Assembly: GCA_965218435.1 (NCBI GenBank)
Contig: CBDCKW010000009.1
Location: 3,456,001-3,520,000, forward strand
Origin: Truepera sp.
GTDB taxonomy: Bacteria > Deinococcota > Deinococci > Deinococcales > Trueperaceae
Length of the DNA stretch: 64,000 bases
Direction of reading: 5' to 3'
Position numbers and translations under genes: made by a program. The notes under the pieces are model-generated. The model was not told where the DNA came from. It did no database searches and was given only the letters and a program-made list of their open reading frames with translations. This document shows, piece by piece, positions 1 to 8,226 of the stretch (within the stretch, counting starts at the first letter, position 1; every line of letters starts with the position of its first letter).

Positions 1-60
1 CCGAGAACTATTCTGAATTGAGCACTAGAATGGGCTTGCCTGATCTTCGGGGTCACTTCT

Positions 61-91
61 GAGCGACGCACTTGTTGCGGTGCGTCGCTCT
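61..91 (-). terminator. hairpin downstream of lipoprotein gene
   Basis: GAGCGACGCAC-N-GTGCGTCGCTC 11-bp stem 18 nt past the stop at 109; no clear U-tract. Confidence 0.5.
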
Positions 92-108
92 CCGGTTTCG
101 GCGGGTCG

Positions 109-1878
109 TTAGAACCCTGGGGCTACAGGTTCGCTATTTCGATATGCTTCGAACTGCGGATTTCTATCGAACCACTCCGAACGTTTCTGATGCCAAAGGT
201 TAATCAGACTGGTTCTGCTAACTGTAGACGTTGGATATTTGACTGTAAAGCATCCGGCAGGGAGATCAGCAACGTCCGAGTTAAGCCTATTGATATAGGT
301 TTGATCGCTGCCTAAGTAGATGACAAGGTTGTTGCGGCAACCAGTTTCGTCAAAAGCATCCCACGATGAGGCATAAGTGGTATTGCCGTTTTTCTCGGTA
401 TTAATATGACCACTATTTTCCTTCGTTATAAGAAAAACATTATCTTGCAGCGTAAGGCGACAACCTTTTCTAGCGTAGTAGGTAATTGTTCCATCATTCT
501 TCTTCGTATCCTGATTCCACTTAAAAAGTTGATAGTGTCCAGGCGTGCCTTTAGTCGGGTCTACGTTGGACTCAGTTGCTGTACCGTGTTGCGGCCTGAG
601 TGCCAGCAAGCTATTTTTGATAGTGAAGGGCACGTTCGCTTCTACAGCCGTAGTCCCTTTGCGGCAGGAGAAACCTGTATAGGCCCAGTCAACGAGAACA
701 TTGTCCACCACACCGGCGTTAAAAAAGTCGCTTTCGACGGCATCATCACCCGCATGTCTGACATACGAGTCTCTTACCGTCCATCCGCTCGTATCCCTCT
801 TGATAGCAAAGGCGTCCCCAGTTGTGCCTATAGCAACATTCTCAATTGTGGTATTTTTGCTACCACCAGCACTGAGGTCGCCGAAGTTTGGAACGCCAAC
901 TAAGATGCCGTTTCGTGCGTGGAACGCCCCATCTTTTGAACATTTCGCTTTTTCTGCATCGGTTGCGTTAAGGTAGCTGCAATCCCAAACGGAGTTGTCC
1001 CCATTAGCAAGATTAGGCGCATAGAACCCACTGGAAAGACATAGATAACCCGCCGGATTTCCAACAATCTCTAGTCCTTGCACCCCACTAAATCTAGACC
1101 CCTTAGCGTTGACACCCGTTTTAGCAGGCTGTCCGGTCAGTTTTTTCCCGGTGTAGGTTTGATTCATCCAGTTCACTATGTTGGTTGAGCCGGTTAGACA
1201 TGATGCTCCGGTAGTCGTTGGTAAGGCATATATAACCTCGAGCGCAGGCTTACTACCAGGCGTTCCCTCGAACGACTCAGCGATGCGGCTGCCCGTGCCT
1301 TCAATCGCAAATGTGAGTGAATCAACTGCACCGTTGTTAATTAGCGGCTGAACCAGCGAGCTCAGGTCGGGCGACTTGACTTCGGGACTCTGAAGCGTCA
1401 TTGTCGTCTTCCATGACGGCACAGCCCAAGAGACGAATGTGTTGGTGAGGGAGCGTGAGGTGATGTCCTTGTTGGTTGTCTTAAAGGTATTCGACGTATA
1501 GCTGCTATGCATCCGAATTGACATCGTTGCAGAGCCGTTACTATCGGCTCTTGGCAAGAAATATAAGTTAGCCGACTTTATAACAGCACCTTTTGGAATA
1601 CCCAAGTTCGTAAATCTAACGCCGACAGCAGTGCTACCACTCGCGTTCGAACCGAGATCGAGGTCGGTGCTATCTAATACCATCGTGCCTGTACTCAACG
1701 TTTCTTCAGCATCGTCGGTGGCTATAGCTATTCTTTGCCACGCTGTTGAGTCTGCTTGGGAGGTAAGTTCAGGTTCCTGAATTCCTGGCGAAGTTTGAAG
1801 ACCGCTACTACACGCCGCTAAGATGAGAATCGCGGAGAATGCGGTGCCTAGAGTAGTTCCATCTTTACGCTTCAACAT
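109..1878 (-). CDS. lipoprotein: N-terminal 'DDAEE..GxRF..IPKGA' beta-sandwich + C-terminal right-handed beta-helix (pectin-lyase-like) domain
   Basis: lipobox LAAC; GAGAGGA RBS; repeats such as IENVAI, VRDSYVRHAGDDAVESD, VDNVLVDWAY; paralog of the neighbouring gene. Confidence 0.75.
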   Translation of the reverse strand: MLKRKDGTTLGTAFSAILILAACSSGLQTSPGIQEPELTSQADSTAWQRIAIATDDAEETLSTGTMVLDSTDLDLGSNASGSTAVGVRFTNLGIPKGAVIKSANLYFLPRADSNGSATMSIRMHSSYTSNTFKTTNKDITSRSLTNTFVSWAVPSWKTTMTLQSPEVKSPDLSSLVQPLINNGAVDSLTFAIEGTGSRIAESFEGTPGSKPALEVIYALPTTTGASCLTGSTNIVNWMNQTYTGKKLTGQPAKTGVNAKGSRFSGVQGLEIVGNPAGYLCLSSGFYAPNLANGDNSVWDCSYLNATDAEKAKCSKDGAFHARNGILVGVPNFGDLSAGGSKNTTIENVAIGTTGDAFAIKRDTSGWTVRDSYVRHAGDDAVESDFFNAGVVDNVLVDWAYTGFSCRKGTTAVEANVPFTIKNSLLALRPQHGTATESNVDPTKGTPGHYQLFKWNQDTKKNDGTITYYARKGCRLTLQDNVFLITKENSGHINTEKNGNTTYASSWDAFDETGCRNNLVIYLGSDQTYINRLNSDVADLPAGCFTVKYPTSTVSRTSLINLWHQKRSEWFDRNPQFEAYRNSEPVAPGF

Positions 1879-1988
1879 GTTTATCCTCTCAAGTACTCTC
1901 AGCCAAAAGTTATGGAAGACTTTGAGTCTGCTGTCAGCACAACCTGAACATAAGTGAGTGAAGATAAATCAAGCCAACTTGCTGTAGA

Positions 1989-2020
1989 AATCAAGAGGCA
2001 GTATATGCTGCCTCTTGATT
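1989..2020 (-). terminator. intergenic hairpin (terminator or mRNA stabiliser)
   Basis: AATCAAGAGGCAG-TATATG-CTGCCTCTTGATT perfect 13-bp stem. Confidence 0.6.
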
Positions 2021-2037
2021 AATCTCGAGTTTCACGT

Positions 2038-3657
2038 TTAGTTTACTCCTGGCTCCTTCAGGTTCTTGTAGGAGAAAATTTGTGAGTTTCCACTATGCCT
2101 ATCGAACCAAGCCGTGCGTTTCTGCTGCCAGAAGCTAGTTGCGGTAGACCCTTGCACAAGCTTGAAACAGTCTGAACCAAACCTGCTTCTCAAAGCTGCA
2201 AGCCTACTTGCGCTAGTCTTATTATTAGTGTTGTAGTCACCGCTACCTGTATAGACTAGAGTAACATTGCTACACTCGGTGACATAATCAGTTGGGCTCT
2301 GAGTTGATCTGAATACGTCATTGCTGAGTTGCATATAAAAAACGGTGTTTTTGAGACGTAGTTTACAATTGGGCTTGCTATCTTGCTCGAATTTGAACAT
2401 AAAGAGGTGGTTGGGGTTGTTTGGGTTTAACCCTCCAGAAGTACCCACCTGCTTCTTCAGTGCAATTAAGCTGTCCTGAACAGTCACAGTACCGGGAGGA
2501 TTTAGTGACGGATTGCTGTCTCCACGGCATGAAATGCCCATGTATGCCCAGTCCACTAAGACATCATCTATAAGACCATTGTACTTGGGATCGTTTTCTG
2601 CAAAGTCGTCGCCAGCATGTCGAACATACGAATCACGTATAGTCCAATTATTTGCGTTACCTCTATAGCTTTTGAAAGAGAAGGCGTCACCTGTTTGCTG
2701 TATAGCTATATTTTCGAGGATAACGCTGGGCGAATTTACGACTGTGACGGCGAAGTCATTATGATAACCAGGGTCTGCCCATTGGAGGTTATCACTCTCA
2801 CCAGTATCGAATTTTCCTCCCGAAAGGCACAAGTTGGACTTGTTGTCTTGCACGGTGAGAATTGATACGCCTCCATTAGAGTTTGGCCGCACAGTAAAAG
2901 TCTTGCCGGTTGCGCTGACTCGAGCATCAAGGTCTTTGCCTTGAACATAGTATTGTTTACCTGTTGGACTGATGTTATAGATATTGCTCGCGCCTTGTAG
3001 ACAAGAGGTAGAAGGAGGTGGGGGGACATCATAAGTCACAGTCAGCTTAGCAGCGTTGGCGCTGTTACCGTCATAAGAAGAAGCTTTGCGTTGACCAGAG
3101 CCTGCAATAATGAAGGCCATCGCGTTACCTGAAGCCCAGCTTGACTGATTGACCAGTTCTTGCACGACCGACCGAAAGTCAACCGTGCTGTAAGTGTTGC
3201 CACTTGTCCAAGCACCTGGCACCCAGTTGGTTACCGCTGTTGTTTTGGGGCGAGCACTGATCTGCGGATAGCTAGAAGTGAATTCGGGTGCGTTAGCTTC
3301 TTTGTCACCGCGAACAGTCAACGATGTTGACCTAGATGTGTTCGTAACGGCGACGAATTCAAGTTTAGCACCTGTAATGGTTGCACCTTTAGGAATGTTG
3401 ATACCGGTGAAACGAAGCCCTGTTTGTTGAGGTTCGGACTTCTCACCGAGGTCGAGAACTGTGCTGTCGCTATAATAAGGTCCGCTGGACTGCTCTTCTG
3501 CGTCACTAACGGCGTTAGGAACCGTTTTGGTAACTGTAGTAGCTTGGGTAGTCAAAGTAGGCTCTTTGTCTGGAGTATCAGTCTGAAGACCACTACTGCA
3601 CGCCGCTAGGAGAGCCAAAGTTGCCACCAATGAACTAAGTTTCAGCCAAGATTTCAT
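2038..3657 (-). CDS. lipoprotein, paralog of 109..1878 (beta-sandwich + beta-helix)
   Basis: start re-called to MKSWLKL (ATG 3657, AGAAGGGA RBS); lipobox LAAC; shared ACSSGLQT, DAEE, IRDSYVRHAGDD, VLVDWAY motifs. Confidence 0.75.
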   Translation of the reverse strand: MKSWLKLSSLVATLALLAACSSGLQTDTPDKEPTLTTQATTVTKTVPNAVSDAEEQSSGPYYSDSTVLDLGEKSEPQQTGLRFTGINIPKGATITGAKLEFVAVTNTSRSTSLTVRGDKEANAPEFTSSYPQISARPKTTAVTNWVPGAWTSGNTYSTVDFRSVVQELVNQSSWASGNAMAFIIAGSGQRKASSYDGNSANAAKLTVTYDVPPPPSTSCLQGASNIYNISPTGKQYYVQGKDLDARVSATGKTFTVRPNSNGGVSILTVQDNKSNLCLSGGKFDTGESDNLQWADPGYHNDFAVTVVNSPSVILENIAIQQTGDAFSFKSYRGNANNWTIRDSYVRHAGDDFAENDPKYNGLIDDVLVDWAYMGISCRGDSNPSLNPPGTVTVQDSLIALKKQVGTSGGLNPNNPNHLFMFKFEQDSKPNCKLRLKNTVFYMQLSNDVFRSTQSPTDYVTECSNVTLVYTGSGDYNTNNKTSASRLAALRSRFGSDCFKLVQGSTATSFWQQKRTAWFDRHSGNSQIFSYKNLKEPGVN

Positions 3658-3797
3658 ACTTTCCCTTCTACATTCTTGCCGTAACGCCTGCGGACAACGT
3701 TCGTTTGGCGCGGTTGAGCTGTGAATTGCAAAAACACGCCCCCGATCAGCATTCAAGCTGACCCCGTTAGCAACCTCCTTTTCTACTCAACGAAGCT

Positions 3798-3829
3798 AAG
3801 GTAACAAAGCGAAGTTACATAGTCGTTAC
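3798..3829 (-). promoter_or_regulatory. promoter of the lipoprotein genes: 2 GTAAC direct repeats (11-bp period) + -10 TACCTT
   Basis: minus-strand GTAAC at 3829-3825 and 3818-3814, 10 nt, then TACCTT 3803-3798. Confidence 0.65.
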
Positions 3830-3857
3830 TTACCAGCTGGCTGTAGCGCAACTAGTC

Positions 3858-3913
3858 AGGTAACAAAACGGTAATCACCGGGTAACGCTTTGTTAACGAA
3901 CACCTGCCAAACT
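3858..3913 (+). promoter_or_regulatory. promoter of the peptide gene: 4 GGTAAC-like direct repeats (11-bp period) + -10 CAAACT
   Basis: GGTAAC 3859, GGTAAT 3870, GGTAAC 3881, GTTAAC 3892; 10 nt; CAAACT 3908-3913. Confidence 0.65.
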
Positions 3914-3949
3914 TGTAATCAGCTAGGACAATAAAGAAGGGGTGAACTG

Positions 3950-4102
3950 ATGAGCAAAATAGGTAGGGTTTTGCTAAGTATTTTACTCTTGACGAGCTTG
4001 GGGCTCTCCATGGCCGCAAATTCTAGCAGTTTAGGTGTGGGAAACGGTTCTAATGTACCTAAGCAAAGTCCGATCGTTTCGGTGTCTGCCAAAAGAAATT
4101 AG
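3950..4102 (+). CDS. 50-aa secreted peptide precursor (putative signalling peptide), absent from the ORF track
   Basis: AAGAAGGGGTG RBS; MSKIGRVLLSILLLTSLGLSMA-ANSSSLGVGNGSNVPKQSPIVSVSAKRN has basic n-region, hydrophobic h-region and SMA signal-peptidase-like site. Confidence 0.75.
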   Translation: MSKIGRVLLSILLLTSLGLSMAANSSSLGVGNGSNVPKQSPIVSVSAKRN

Positions 4103-5829
4103 ATATCGAGTTCTAGCCGGACTCGAGCACGCCTGCCCGCTGCGACACTGCGGCGAGGGTCTTCTGCCGGAAAACGCTGCGTCAGCTCTTCCCACAGTTC
4201 CAGGTCAAAAGGCATGATTTGCGCCAGTTCCCAGATAGCTTCTATATTTCCAGAGTCGGTGACAGCGGTATGAAGTTCGGCTTCTAACAGCCCTCTGAGA
4301 TGAACGATCTCCGGGGCGGTTGACTGCGGGAGCAGGGGACCTCGATACATCTTTATCGCGTCATAAAACTTTCCTTGGCCGAGATAAGTCTCGAGTTCGG
4401 CGACGTCCGACCATACGGATGACATAAGCCGGTACGGGCGCGAGCTTATCTCCACCCCTGCTTCTTTGCGTAGTCGGTGCAACTCGACTCTTAACGATGC
4501 TGTTTGTGATTCTCCGTAGAGTGCTTCACTTAAAGCCTCAGCGTCGTAACCGCTGGGCCGTAGCGCGAGTAAGGTCAGCAGTTCCAGACTGCGGCTTCTA
4601 ACCGTTATAGGGCTGCCTTGGAGATAGAGTTCAGCCCTGCCTAGTGTAAAAAGACGAAGTGAGCGGACGCTCGCAAGCGTAGCTTGTGATTCGCTAAAGG
4701 CTGCTCCGGCCAGTAAACGTATCCCTGTAAGGGTCAGTAAGGTTTTTGCATTGTCTATTGCGGCTCTGATAGATGTTCTGGCACTGTCGTTCTGAAAATC
4801 TAAGGGGTCGAGGTACAAAGCTGACTCTGTTGCCAATAAATTGTTTCTACCCTTGCCGGCAAAAAACTGGTGGGCGCTGAGGAGGTGCCCCACGGCTTCT
4901 TCAGAAGGCCATAGTGAGATGCCTAGGGCTAACCGAGCACGTTGCTGATGATATTCAGAGAGAGAATCCGTCACTGAAAGTGTTGCCTCAGCTTGTCTCT
5001 GCGCCTCTTCCGGCCGGTTCAGCGCATATAGCGCCCTTACATAACCGTGAGTCAGCCAAGACCTCAGAGCCCTGGGAGCTTGCGCAAGTTCCTGCTGGTA
5101 AACCCGTAAGGCGTCGTCATAACGTTCGGTCGCTTGATAAAGGTCTGCTAACGTTGATCTTAGTAGTGCTTTCTGCCGTGAATGAGCTGAGTTGCCCACC
5201 GCTTCGTCGGCTTTTATGAGTTCTTCCTCAAGCCCCTCAAGGCTACCGGTCAAGATTTGCAAGTAGGCTTGGAAGTTGACGATGATCAGCGTCAAGCCCG
5301 GATGCGCTGTTCTGTCCCTCGCAAACTGGAGCCACCCCAAAGCTTTTTTGAAGCTTCCCATATCCGTATAGGCGGTAGCAAGGGCGGCTGCATTTCTGGC
5401 TTCGGCGTAGACGTCGCCTACCTCTTCAGCGGCTATCAAAGAGGCTTGCAGTGCTCGCAAACGAGCCTGAGGATCGGCAGAAGCCAAGCCCAAATGATAC
5501 ATCGTGTGCGCAGTCGCGCGTAACTTGGTCGCCGCTACCGCCTTGCGGTAGTAACCTTCGTCATCCCCCTGGTAGGACTGCAACAGGCCCTCGAGCACGG
5601 TAAGGTCAGCTTTTTCGTCATCACTCACACTAGAAAGTGCGCGGGCAAGGTGTTGACGGGCAAGCATGCTCTGGTCGAGGTTGATAAGCGCCGCTACGAC
5701 ATAAAAAGTTACCCCTTCGGGCCAAGGGGCAGGCAGCTGTCTGCTGAACTCTATAACCTCTTGGTTGAGGCCCCGGGCAAAAAGTTGACGAATAGTTAGG
5801 TAAGCTTTTTGGTCAATAGGCTCTGACAC
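4099..5829 (-). CDS. TPR-repeat protein with C-terminal OmpR/SARP-like winged helix and BTAD-like tail; transcriptional regulator
   Basis: about 370 aa of Ala/Leu helical repeats, then LRLFTLGRAEL...SLELLTLLAL...SLRVELHRLRK...SRPYRL...YRGPLLP. Confidence 0.8.
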   Translation of the reverse strand: MSEPIDQKAYLTIRQLFARGLNQEVIEFSRQLPAPWPEGVTFYVVAALINLDQSMLARQHLARALSSVSDDEKADLTVLEGLLQSYQGDDEGYYRKAVAATKLRATAHTMYHLGLASADPQARLRALQASLIAAEEVGDVYAEARNAAALATAYTDMGSFKKALGWLQFARDRTAHPGLTLIIVNFQAYLQILTGSLEGLEEELIKADEAVGNSAHSRQKALLRSTLADLYQATERYDDALRVYQQELAQAPRALRSWLTHGYVRALYALNRPEEAQRQAEATLSVTDSLSEYHQQRARLALGISLWPSEEAVGHLLSAHQFFAGKGRNNLLATESALYLDPLDFQNDSARTSIRAAIDNAKTLLTLTGIRLLAGAAFSESQATLASVRSLRLFTLGRAELYLQGSPITVRSRSLELLTLLALRPSGYDAEALSEALYGESQTASLRVELHRLRKEAGVEISSRPYRLMSSVWSDVAELETYLGQGKFYDAIKMYRGPLLPQSTAPEIVHLRGLLEAELHTAVTDSGNIEAIWELAQIMPFDLELWEELTQRFPAEDPRRSVAAGRRARVRLELDI

Positions 5830-5835
5830 GTAGTC

Positions 5836-6081
5836 TCACGCTCCTATATCGTCTGAAGCTAGCTCGGTGTGGCCCTCACCCAAGCTCAGCCGAGCGGCAT
5901 ATTCAGACGCCCTTGCAAGTTGACCAAGTAGCGTCGTTTTACCGTAACCGGACGGGGCTGGCAACACTAAAAGATTGGCGTCGGAGGCTCGGATAAGGCG
6001 GTCTAAAAGACTACTGTGCGCGATTTCAGCTTGAAGCGGGCGTAGCCACAAATCTGTGTGATTTTGTAAGCATTTGGTCAT
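5836..6081 (-). pseudogene. N-terminal fragment of a MalT-like STAND ATPase regulator
   Basis: LLDRL...LLVLPAPSGYGKTTLLGQLA Walker A; ends after 81 aa, before Walker B. Confidence 0.65.
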
Positions 6082-6278
6082 ATTCCCCCAATCCGTATGA
6101 TCACAGCTTAGCTAACTTTGTTGCTGCAAAGCAGTTAATTAAGCGTCACTCTAGCGCGGCGAACTTAAGGCTGACTGAAGACTAATTGCCTTTGCTAAAC
6201 AGCTGACGTAACAAGCTGCGTACAAGCGTGGTGCCTGATGAGGCGCAGCTACGTTAGACTTGGGGCCAGAGGTGGTTT

Positions 6279-7238
6279 ATGAAAATGTTGGTTACAGGCG
6301 CGGCAGGATTTATCGGCAGTCACCTAGCTGAGCGGTTAGCGCGGCGTGGCGATACGGTTGTCGGGATAGACAACTTTAACGATTACTACGACCCGGCGCG
6401 TAAACGCCGTAACGCCGAGGCGGTCAGGCAGGCTGGAGTAACAGTTATAGAAGCCGACATCAGGGACCGTGAAAAGATGATGGCGCTGTTTGAACACCAT
6501 CATTTCGACGCCGTAGCGCATATCGCAGCGATGGCGGGCGTGCGTAACTCGGTGGCGAATCCGGCACTCTATATAGACGTCAATCTGGGCGGGACGCAAG
6601 TCCTGATGGACGCCAGCCGCGAGTTCGGCGTGCAGAACTTCGTCTTCGCTTCAACGTCGTCTATTTACGGCGACACGCCGAACATCCCGTTCCAAGAGAC
6701 CGACCCATGCTTGCAGCCGCCGCAACCCTACGCCGCCGCCAAACGCGCCGCCGAACTCCTGGGCTTTACCTATCACAAGCTCTACGGCCTCAACTTTTCG
6801 GCCACGCGGTTTTTTACGGTTTACGGCCCCCGCGGACGGCCCGATATGATGCCGGGGCTCTTAGCCGAAAGCCTCTACTACGGCAAGATGATTCCGCTCT
6901 ATGAAGGCAATATGCGCCGCGACTGGACGTTTGTAGACGACATCGTGTCGGGCGTCGTGCTGGCGCTCGATAAGCCGCTCGGGTACGAGATTTTTAATAT
7001 CGGGCGCGGGGAGCCGCAACCCTTGGCTGACTTTATCGGGGCGATAGAGGCGGTGTCGGGCCGCAGGACGAGGCTCGAGCCCCAACCTAAACTCGCCGCC
7101 GACGTGTACGTCACCTACGCCGACATCGGCAAAGCGCGAAAACTTTTGGGCTTTGAACCCAAAGTCTCGATCCGTGAGGGTATCGAGCGGTTTTGGCGTT
7201 GGTACGAAGACGAGCAGCGTGAATTAACCCCCAGCTGA
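6279..7238 (+). CDS. NAD-dependent epimerase (UDP-glucuronate 4-epimerase-like)
   Basis: TGAAGFIG, HIAAMAGVR, YAAAK, RFFTVYGPRGRPDM. Confidence 0.9.
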   Translation: MKMLVTGAAGFIGSHLAERLARRGDTVVGIDNFNDYYDPARKRRNAEAVRQAGVTVIEADIRDREKMMALFEHHHFDAVAHIAAMAGVRNSVANPALYIDVNLGGTQVLMDASREFGVQNFVFASTSSIYGDTPNIPFQETDPCLQPPQPYAAAKRAAELLGFTYHKLYGLNFSATRFFTVYGPRGRPDMMPGLLAESLYYGKMIPLYEGNMRRDWTFVDDIVSGVVLALDKPLGYEIFNIGRGEPQPLADFIGAIEAVSGRRTRLEPQPKLAADVYVTYADIGKARKLLGFEPKVSIREGIERFWRWYEDEQRELTPS

Positions 7239-7738
7239 TGCCAATTTCTGACTATATCAAAGATCTGCGTGTATCTATCGGTCACAAACCGCTGCTGACG
7301 CCCGGCGTAGACGCGATAATTCATAGTGACGCCGGACACCTGCTGCTCATCAAACGAAGTGACACCGGGCTCTGGGGCTTGCCGGGGGGACAACTCGATC
7401 CGCTCGAGCCCCCCGCCTTGGGTCTTATCCGTGAGGTTTTTGAAGAGACCGGACTAAAAGTTGTACCCGAGTCGCTGCTCGGCATTTTCGGCGGCAACGA
7501 CGCCTTTCATGTGCGTTATCCCAATGAGGACGAGGTTGACCCTATCGTGTCGCTGTTCGGTTGCCGCGTGGTTGGCGGAGAGTTGCGAAACCGTGACGGT
7601 GAAGCGACTGAAGTAAGGTTTTTTCCGCCGGACGACGTGCCGAGTGAGCTTACGTCCATCACAGGTTATTTGCTGAACTGCTTAGAACAAAATAGCCTTT
7701 TCGAGTGGGACGAACGCTGGCTGGATACGCTCAGCTGA
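7238..7738 (+). CDS. NUDIX hydrolase
   Basis: GGQLDPLE...REVFEETG Nudix box; TGATG coupling to the upstream gene. Confidence 0.9.
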   Translation: MPISDYIKDLRVSIGHKPLLTPGVDAIIHSDAGHLLLIKRSDTGLWGLPGGQLDPLEPPALGLIREVFEETGLKVVPESLLGIFGGNDAFHVRYPNEDEVDPIVSLFGCRVVGGELRNRDGEATEVRFFPPDDVPSELTSITGYLLNCLEQNSLFEWDERWLDTLS

Positions 7739-8226
7739 TGCCGATTTCTGAGTACCTTGAGGGACTCCGGGCACGGATTGGGCATGACTTGGTGCTCAAC
7801 CCTTCGGTTGCTGCCATCATCCGTGACGAAGCTGGAAACGTGCTTATTCATCAGCGTAGCGATAACCAAAAATGGGAAATTCCTGCTGGAGCCGTTGACC
7901 CTGATGAAGCGCCCGCGCAGGCCGTGGTGCGAGAAGTTTTTGAGGAGACGGGGCTCAAGGTTCGGCCGCTACATGTCGTTGGCGTATTTAGTGGAAACAC
8001 GGTCACGCATCCAAATGGCGATAAAACCCAGCCGCACTGCACCTTATTCGAGTGCGAAACCCTAGGTGGGACGCTCGAGGCCCGTGACGGTGAGGCTTTA
8101 GCCTTTAGGTACGTCTCTCCTGCTGAGGTGCCGAGGCAGTTTGACTCGCCGCCGAATATCTTTGAGGCCGACTTTACCGGAACATATTTCGCCTGGGATG
8201 AACGCTGGTTAGAGACGCTCGAGTAA
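7738..8226 (+). CDS. NUDIX hydrolase (tandem paralog)
   Basis: start re-called to MPISEY at 7738; AGAVDPDE...REVFEETG. Confidence 0.9.
   Translation: MPISEYLEGLRARIGHDLVLNPSVAAIIRDEAGNVLIHQRSDNQKWEIPAGAVDPDEAPAQAVVREVFEETGLKVRPLHVVGVFSGNTVTHPNGDKTQPHCTLFECETLGGTLEARDGEALAFRYVSPAEVPRQFDSPPNIFEADFTGTYFAWDERWLETLE

Follow-up and report, generated by a model that had tools for sequence, protein, structure and literature searches.

We report the computational analysis of a peptide/regulator gene pair in a 64,000-nucleotide stretch of a Truepera sp. genome (assembly GCA_965218435.1, contig CBDCKW010000009.1, positions 3,456,001 to 3,520,000; hereafter the window), where the gene for a putative signal precursor of 50 residues converges with the gene for a regulator of 576 residues (Table 1). 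The pairing of such peptides with such regulators is real, conserved and, apparently, undescribed, and it probably represents an RRNPP-like peptide/receptor circuit built on a MalT/SARP-type scaffold, which is not itself a member of RRNPP. The features that the analysis shows and that carry this reading are the gene pairing, the fold of the regulator, the geometry of the promoters and its conservation, and the constraint on the mature peptides. An earlier sequence-only reading had proposed a peptide-signalling circuit here around a small open reading frame (ORF) with a ribosome-binding site and a stop overlapping that of the convergent regulator gene, and this arrangement is present as claimed; the ribosome-binding site is AAGGGGTG, which ends 5 nt ahead of the start, and the two stops share 4 nt.

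The pairing was examined family-wide with a fixed filter that accepts ORFs of 35-70 aa beginning with ATG or GTG, preceded by a Shine-Dalgarno match, lying within 800 nt of the regulator gene and encoding a basic n-region, an uncharged h-region, a small-residue cleavage site and a hydrophilic remainder. The sample comprised 120 regions around regulator matches, mostly the best-scoring out of 198 and 248 reported matches and leaving out some close duplicates, short contigs and genome G115; together with nine metagenome loci and two loci of the host genome (G000) these gave 132 distinct regulators of at least 150 bits, of which 110 have both flanks of at least 800 nt. A peptide gene passing the filter stands beside 64/110 regulators of Deinococcota, against 18/681 control ORFs of at least 450 aa from the host genome, an enrichment of approximately 20-fold to which we attach no P value because kin are not independent. 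The sequence-only reading had proposed this check, and the outcome is in its favour: small signal-peptide genes do adjoin homologous regulators. Inspection by eye rejected two of the 64 as false, leaving 62, and added ten that are too short or too long for the filter; a relaxed filter, applied identically to both sets, finds 77/110 against 44/681, and other ORFs in the same loci pass the peptide filter in 4 of 31 cases.

The 62 pairs are arranged convergently in 28 cases, divergently in 26 and co-directionally in 8. The pair survives these three layouts as well as changing neighbours, which indicates that the peptide travels with the regulator and not with the output. In a tree built by FastTree the type of peptide follows the regulator clade, and peptide-bearing members are spread over many clades, in the Trueperaceae and in other families. 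The regulators themselves are common, with a match at E <=1e-40 in 150/265 Deinococcota genomes (a tally that includes G115) and 550 clusters at 50% identity reaching 1e-30; named homologues come from Truepera and Thermus, and the Atlas clusters are mostly Deinococcota. The window belongs to a short-form clade of ten loci in the tree, and in six of these (the window, L031-L034 and L040) the convergent peptide gene is intact and encodes 43-50 aa; the sequence of L036 stops 130 nt past the regulator, and the partial locus L165 has the peptide, the lipoprotein and, by eye, the promoter boxes. The host genome also holds a paralogous pair (G000:C9:1753489-1756405), in which an 815-aa regulator is followed 353 nt downstream by a co-directional 38-aa Sec peptide; its promoter has GTAAC/GCAAC boxes 11 bp apart with TACAGT 10 nt on, and a lipoprotein of the same family as those of the window lies approximately 5.5 kb upstream.

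The propeptide has a basic N-terminus, a hydrophobic uncharged stretch and S-M-A at residues 20-22, a heuristic n/h/c pattern that predicts residues 1-22 as a Sec signal and that is kept in the orthologous peptides (L031-L034, L040 and L165), which have SVA, SMA or ALA at the position of S-M-A. The predicted exported part, residues 23-50, is Gly/Ser-rich and then has a P-K-x-x-P stretch. Among the peptides of the window's clade, a conserved signal part is joined to a hypervariable exported part, in which Gly residues and a stretch of K-P or P-x-P are shared; in the contig of a related strain, divergence is confined to 4005-4096. On the side of the regulator, residues 291-385 of the TPR region vary most (entropy 0.86 against 0.43 in the winged helix). 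The 22 signal codons differ 74, 41 and 94 times at codon positions 1, 2 and 3, respectively, over ten pairs, and by this pattern the gene reads as coding sequence.

Other clades show further constraint on the end of the peptide. In one divergent clade a C-terminal D-x-G, with D and G invariant, is found in 31/31 peptides, a set that was picked by that very ending, and strong residue preferences extend across the last 13 positions. Propeptides of this kind may carry the unit in tandem, four times in L090 and L116 and twice in L094 and L101, each unit being 12-13 residues long and ending D-V-G; these repeats likely define the mature signal, and duplicated pheromone units have been described in Phr propeptides (PMC11343458). 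A further clade (L113, L115, L150-L153 and L155) has a 33-aa peptide upstream of the regulator and in the same direction, with a nearly invariant signal start and an exported part of only some seven residues that ends in Q-R or R-R. At L067, tandem genes for similar peptides of 39 and 42 aa lie 1.4-1.6 kb away from the regulator.

The regulator consists of a TPR-like helical superhelix (residues ~5-385), a probable OmpR-type winged helix (~391-474) and BTAD-like helices (475-573). Folded from a single sequence it gave a poor model (predicted local distance difference test, pLDDT, 45), which was replaced by an AlphaFold2 model based on a 37-row homologue alignment (pLDDT 90.6, predicted template modelling score 0.74). 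This model has helical hairpins as far as residue 385, strands and helices in winged-helix order over 391-474, and helices after that. The best fold matches of the superhelix are tied between MalT domain III (1hz4; Z 25.2, residues 30-362, root mean square deviation 4.1 over 332) and Rap-phi3T (Z 25.0), with NprR (Z 22.0) and AimR (21.7) close and the Rap proteins ranging over 22-25; Pfam matches to TPRs are weak and under the cut-off. The C-terminal DNA-binding assignment is more weakly supported than the repeat region: Foldseek matches this part to AfsR (8hvr; TMt 0.50 over 227 columns), the RstA DNA-binding domain is matched at E 0.004 over profile 397-468 and Trans_reg_C at E 0.062, under the cut-off, while Pfam finds no BTAD in the regulator and its Atlas neighbours carry the BTAD name. 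Most relatives have 800-900 aa (the ~815-aa form) and an extra N-terminal domain, with weak likeness to a MalT-type P-loop that is without the Walker A lysine (hhalign probability 10.9%); a match of this domain to isochorismatase was judged spurious. The C-terminal part also matches the N-terminus of a 1006-aa regulator of the same genome. At the locus of that protein (G000:C9:3810221-3813727) the winged helix is N-terminal, in AfsR-like order, and the gene faces two small signal-like ORFs, one of which encodes 50 aa with a Pro/Cys-rich tail; this is possibly a third peptide/regulator pair, with a different receptor architecture.

Phased boxes occupy both sides of the intergenic region. On the + strand, G(G/T)TAA(C/T) boxes at 3859, 3870, 3881 and 3892, in 11-bp steps, are followed after 10 nt by the -10 hexamer CAAACT (3908-3913); on the - strand, GTAAC boxes at 3830 and 3819, 11 bp apart, are followed after 10 nt by TACCTT (3803-3798). 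We scored this geometry as a pair of GTAAC cores at an 11-bp interval with TAnnnT 10 nt beyond them, the maximum being 13. The output-side promoter reaches 11-13 in 8/8 clade loci examined, and the geometry of the peptide promoter recurs in orthologues and in other clades: 14/72 peptide upstream regions reach 11, against 0.2% of shuffles, and once the six seed loci are excluded 9/66, including the paralogous pair of the host genome, still reach it with the 11/10 spacing, compared with 0-1 for any of 24 other spacings. The scoring fails in the D-x-G clade, the Deinococcus clade and most other clades; several D-x-G promoters have, by eye, GAAGC pairs 11 bp apart instead. The phased promoter that the sequence-only reading had proposed is thereby seen to be conserved on both sides of the intergenic region, and it is this conservation in orthologues that gives the boxes their real support. 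A strict pattern has exactly two sites in the 4.8-Mb genome, both at the cassette promoters, a count that proves little because the pattern was derived from these same two promoters and shuffles give 0-2; it is absent at about seven paralogous lipoprotein loci in the genome. The looser GGTAAC-N-CG shows no enrichment in the window (11 sites, with 8.0 expected), nor does GTAAC-N6-GTAAC across the genome when compared with other spacings (7 sites against 6-17), so by the latter pattern there is no wide regulon. A scan for sigma-70 promoters and terminators gave no signal above that of shuffles and picked up neither cassette promoter.

SARP promoters are described as having repeats 11 bp apart with the last one 8 bp from the -10 (PMC10936776), and counting the repeat as 7 bp would turn the 10 nt that follow the 5-bp core in the cassette into 8 nt. 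From this SARP-like geometry we infer that the regulator would activate its own peptide gene and one output promoter. The shared promoter had been assigned to both lipoprotein genes; this holds for the first, whereas the second has no strict box promoter upstream and lies behind a hairpin, a candidate terminator or stabiliser, and would be a target only if transcription reads through it. Both lipoproteins have the lipobox LAAC, and the true start of the first is the ATG at 3657. It has a DNRLRE-like N-terminal domain (NF033679, E 7e-5, under the cut-off) and probably a right-handed beta-helix (Atlas look-alikes 0.91-0.92, PF13229 on 14-88% of members); Pfam gives no family for either protein, and both may be enzymes acting on polysaccharides. 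Homologues of the first occupy the equivalent slot in L031-L035 and L040, and one contig of a related strain skips 1823-3702. An expanded family of DNRLRE-like/beta-helix lipoproteins without Pfam matches occurs at approximately eight other places in the same contig of the host genome (G000:C9).

Elsewhere in the family the neighbouring outputs vary, and include a lipoprotein and EAL, HD-domain, radical SAM and ABC permease proteins. Tests on 34 neighbouring proteins, hand-picked from 132 candidates, returned EAL in 4/4 (divergent clade), HD-domain in 5/5 and radical SAM in 3/3. The EAL genes follow the peptide in L064, L068, L083 and L100, and HD-domain (HD_5) genes adjoin it in L042, L046, L047, L052 and L053, neighbours which would link the family to the turnover of cyclic di-GMP (c-di-GMP). 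Two Deinococcus plasmids, L162 (NZ_CP092194.1) and L160 (CP029777.1), carry the regulator with a convergent peptide of 53-57 aa, a radical SAM protein and an LLM oxidoreductase; in L162 these are accompanied by small ORFs and by a lantibiotic dehydratase. In Deinococcus sp. KNUC1210 the pair MF271_RS20585/RS20590 adjoins a cluster for a ribosomally synthesised and post-translationally modified peptide (RiPP), and the peptide homologue, MF271_RS20590, is annotated as a coding sequence.

In the circuit that we propose, the 50-aa propeptide would be exported by Sec and cleaved after Ala22, and a fragment of the remaining 28 aa would accumulate outside, re-enter through an oligopeptide ABC importer and bind the groove of the regulator's TPR superhelix. 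Binding would switch the C-terminal winged helix-BTAD module, which would attach to the GTAAC boxes, phased at 11 bp, across the -35 region and recruit RNA polymerase in SARP-like fashion at two back-to-back promoters, that of the peptide gene (feedback) and that of the surface lipoprotein gene (output). Export, processing, import, binding, the sign of the response and the sensing of cell density are the parts of this reading that we infer. The host genome encodes 16 SBP_bac_5 proteins, which are candidate oligopeptide-binding proteins. As to sign, we lean slightly towards activation of the regulator by the peptide, that is autoinduction; inhibition, as by Phr or AimP, is a plausible alternative.

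Several points weigh against this circuit. The host encodes Omp85/BamA, and since it therefore has an outer membrane, Sec export reaches only the periplasm. The superhelix has its best fold match in a domain that senses sugar, and folds of the TPR type are generic, with a subunit of the anaphase-promoting complex (APC/C) matching at Z 24.5. No peptide gene was found within 800 nt of 38/110 regulators after inspection, among them all full-flank rows of the short Thermus and Meiothermus types; in the window's own clade, the peptide of L035 is frameshifted and L037 keeps the boxes and the lipoprotein with no peptide. The loci are related rather than independent, six of the orthologue loci (L031-L035 and L037) come from a single metagenome assembly, and the control ORFs were taken from one genome only. 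Between peptide and TPR region no co-variation was seen over and above common descent, the partial r of mature peptide and TPR given the winged helix being only 0.12 and the reverse 0.23. A complex prediction for TPR residues 1-388 with peptide residues 21-50 scored 0.02 against a mark of 0.32 and is uninformative either way.

The peptide might instead be an output only, namely an antimicrobial, a surface peptide or the precursor of a modified peptide, with the regulator sensing a small molecule through its MalT-like domain. The top fold match agrees with this, as do the peptide-less regulators, the position of the peptide gene itself behind boxes, its place as last gene of a radical-SAM operon in some loci, and L041 (2309-4381), a locus of the window's clade in which the ORF driven by the boxes is co-directional and encodes a predicted secreted product of 76 aa; a DUF5819 gene and one for a membrane protein come next, in an order that may resemble the Bacillus sdp operon. 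We nevertheless think it unlikely, for the peptide is the one constant partner whereas the other outputs change, and exported parts of 7 to 28 residues, clade-specific C-terminal motifs and exact tandem repeats suit a ligand better than an effector. The KNUC1210 plasmid locus, furthermore, has separate small ORFs beside its lantibiotic dehydratase, and the precursor that undergoes modification is thus not necessarily the Sec peptide.

Alternatively, the peptide may be a ligand that is exported to the periplasm only and re-imported by the same cell, reporting on secretion, periplasmic proteolysis or the integrity of the envelope and not on cell density. All of the genomic evidence for a ligand fits such a private loop equally well, Sec export in a genome with Omp85/BamA ends in the periplasm, and the output proteins of this cassette are lipoproteins of the envelope. 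Exported parts that are hypervariable between close relatives, however, are expected if strains must be distinguished and less so for a private signal, and c-di-GMP phosphodiesterase-type and RiPP genes, which occur among the outputs, are typical group traits under quorum sensing; we regard this explanation as quite unlikely. That the small ORF is non-functional, or its position a matter of chance, is very improbable: the signal-peptide assignment is heuristic and the ORF is known from sequence alone, but the enrichment over the control, the ribosome-binding sites, the coding-type codon-position pattern, the dedicated conserved promoter and the annotated KNUC1210 homologue all speak for a functional gene.

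The circuit proposed here is best placed by comparison with known systems. RRNPP systems have been defined by a propeptide of 10-100 aa, a Sec/SPI signal, a TPR receptor, directly neighbouring genes and a receptor of approximately 250-500 aa (PMC10075063); the cassette shows the propeptide size, the TPRs and the neighbouring genes, three of these five features, and the Sec signal by heuristic only, and its receptor is too long. As in the RRNPPA pairs (Rap-Phr, NprR-NprX, PlcR-PapR and AimR-AimP), a TPR-like protein predicted to be cytoplasmic adjoins a gene for a small predicted Sec propeptide, a superhelix of ~360 residues aligns to Rap, NprR and AimR, some propeptides hold tandem copies of the likely mature unit, and the proposed regulon is local and includes the peptide gene. 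RRNPP receptors, however, have, at their N-terminus, a helix-turn-helix or three-helix bundle before the TPRs (PMC9765709), whereas the window's DNA-binding module is a C-terminal winged helix with BTAD, its receptor has 576 aa (relatives ~815 aa with the extra N-terminal domain), the candidate operators are direct repeats at 11 bp, the phylum is diderm, the structural alignments have 7-13% identity and the system is known from genes alone. The C-terminal winged helix and the diderm host had been part of the sequence-only reading and both stand; the convergent layout, also part of it, is not general. On common descent, MalT domain III and Rap lie within 1 Z unit and no RRNPP sequence is among the profile matches from the Protein Data Bank.

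The resemblance to the SARPs (AfsR, EmbR) lies in a probable OmpR-type DNA-binding domain followed by BTA-like helices, in the Foldseek match to AfsR and in direct repeats at an 11-bp distance immediately ahead of the -10 (PMC10936776); unlike AfsR, in which the module is N-terminal and precedes NOD and TPR domains, the window's protein has it behind the TPR (391-573 of 576), with a shorter BTAD part that has no Pfam BTAD match, and is paired with a predicted exported peptide. MalT-type STAND proteins share the superhelical sensor and, with the ~815-aa relatives, the order of NTPase-like domain, sensor repeats and C-terminal DNA binding, but the window's protein has no NTPase domain, the one in its ~815-aa relatives is degenerate if it is there at all, and the C-terminus of the window's protein is a winged helix-BTAD module whereas that of MalT is LuxR-type. 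The DqsI/DqsR N-acyl-homoserine lactone (AHL) and LuxS/autoinducer-2 (AI-2) systems of Deinococcus belong to the same phylum and to cell-density signalling, which for the cassette is a proposal, but their signals are small molecules; section 46 of a Deinococcus review (PMC6300522) names only AHL and AI-2 systems and no peptide system.

Our literature search, which covered mainly the main texts of open papers, found no description of this family, and the main texts of PMC9765709, PMC10075063 and PMC12700828 contain no word starting with 'Deinococc'. Intracellular peptide quorum sensing is described for the Bacillota and their mobile elements (PMC10075063, PMC9765709). If our reading is true, a diderm version, whose DNA-binding module differs and whose ancestry probably does too, would widen this picture and make one ask by what route a peptide gets across two membranes, and the family may provide the structural outgroup that the RRNPPA phylogeny lacks (PMC12700828). 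We suggest, tentatively, that peptide quorum sensing is phylum-wide in the diderm Deinococcota and arose separately from RRNPP, through a MalT/STAND sensor turned peptide receptor with its ATPase lost or disabled, and that strain-specific dialects control surface enzymes, c-di-GMP turnover and RiPP clusters. The family is common and offers testable triples of signal, receptor and operator, one of them in the named isolate Deinococcus sp. KNUC1210, where the pair adjoins a RiPP cluster and is therefore a possible inducer for silent clusters; the repeat propeptides of L090, L116, L094 and L101 would be the best test substrates for the signal.

Table 1. Features of the cassette, in window coordinates
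Feature	Position	Strand	Description
Peptide gene	3950-4102	+	50 aa, ATG start, putative signal precursor
Regulator gene	4099-5829	-	576 aa, GTG start, putative peptide receptor and activator
First lipoprotein	2038-3657	-	539 aa, Cys20, candidate direct target
Second lipoprotein	109-1878	-	589 aa, Cys23, paralogue of first (33% identical)
Hairpin	1989-2020		16-nt arms, between the two lipoprotein genes
Peptide-gene promoter	3859-3913	+	
Lipoprotein-gene promoter	3798-3830	-	
MalT-like gene relic	5836-6081	-	81 aa, N-terminus with Walker A

The last feature of Table 1 had been counted as part of the circuit, which it is not: the 81-aa ORF matches MalT (PRK04841, E 5e-7) and is the relic of a separate MalT-like gene of ~1000 aa, being 57% identical over 63 aa to an intact 1016-aa gene in L035. 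L031 and L035 have this gene intact, L034 has it interrupted, and L032 and L033 lack it; the separate intact genes of L031 and L035 rule out that the ORF is a split-off N-terminus of the regulator. A contig of a related strain spans 5290-6224, which covers the relic, with six differences. The cassette is AT-richer than its surroundings, with a GC content of 0.46-0.49 over 1-4100 and 0.54 in the regulator gene against 0.57 for the contig. Beyond it, at 6279-8226, the window has an NAD-dependent epimerase and then two ORFs which we take, by their motif, to be Nudix-like, and in several orthologous loci the cassette is flanked by an epimerase and one Nudix-like ORF.

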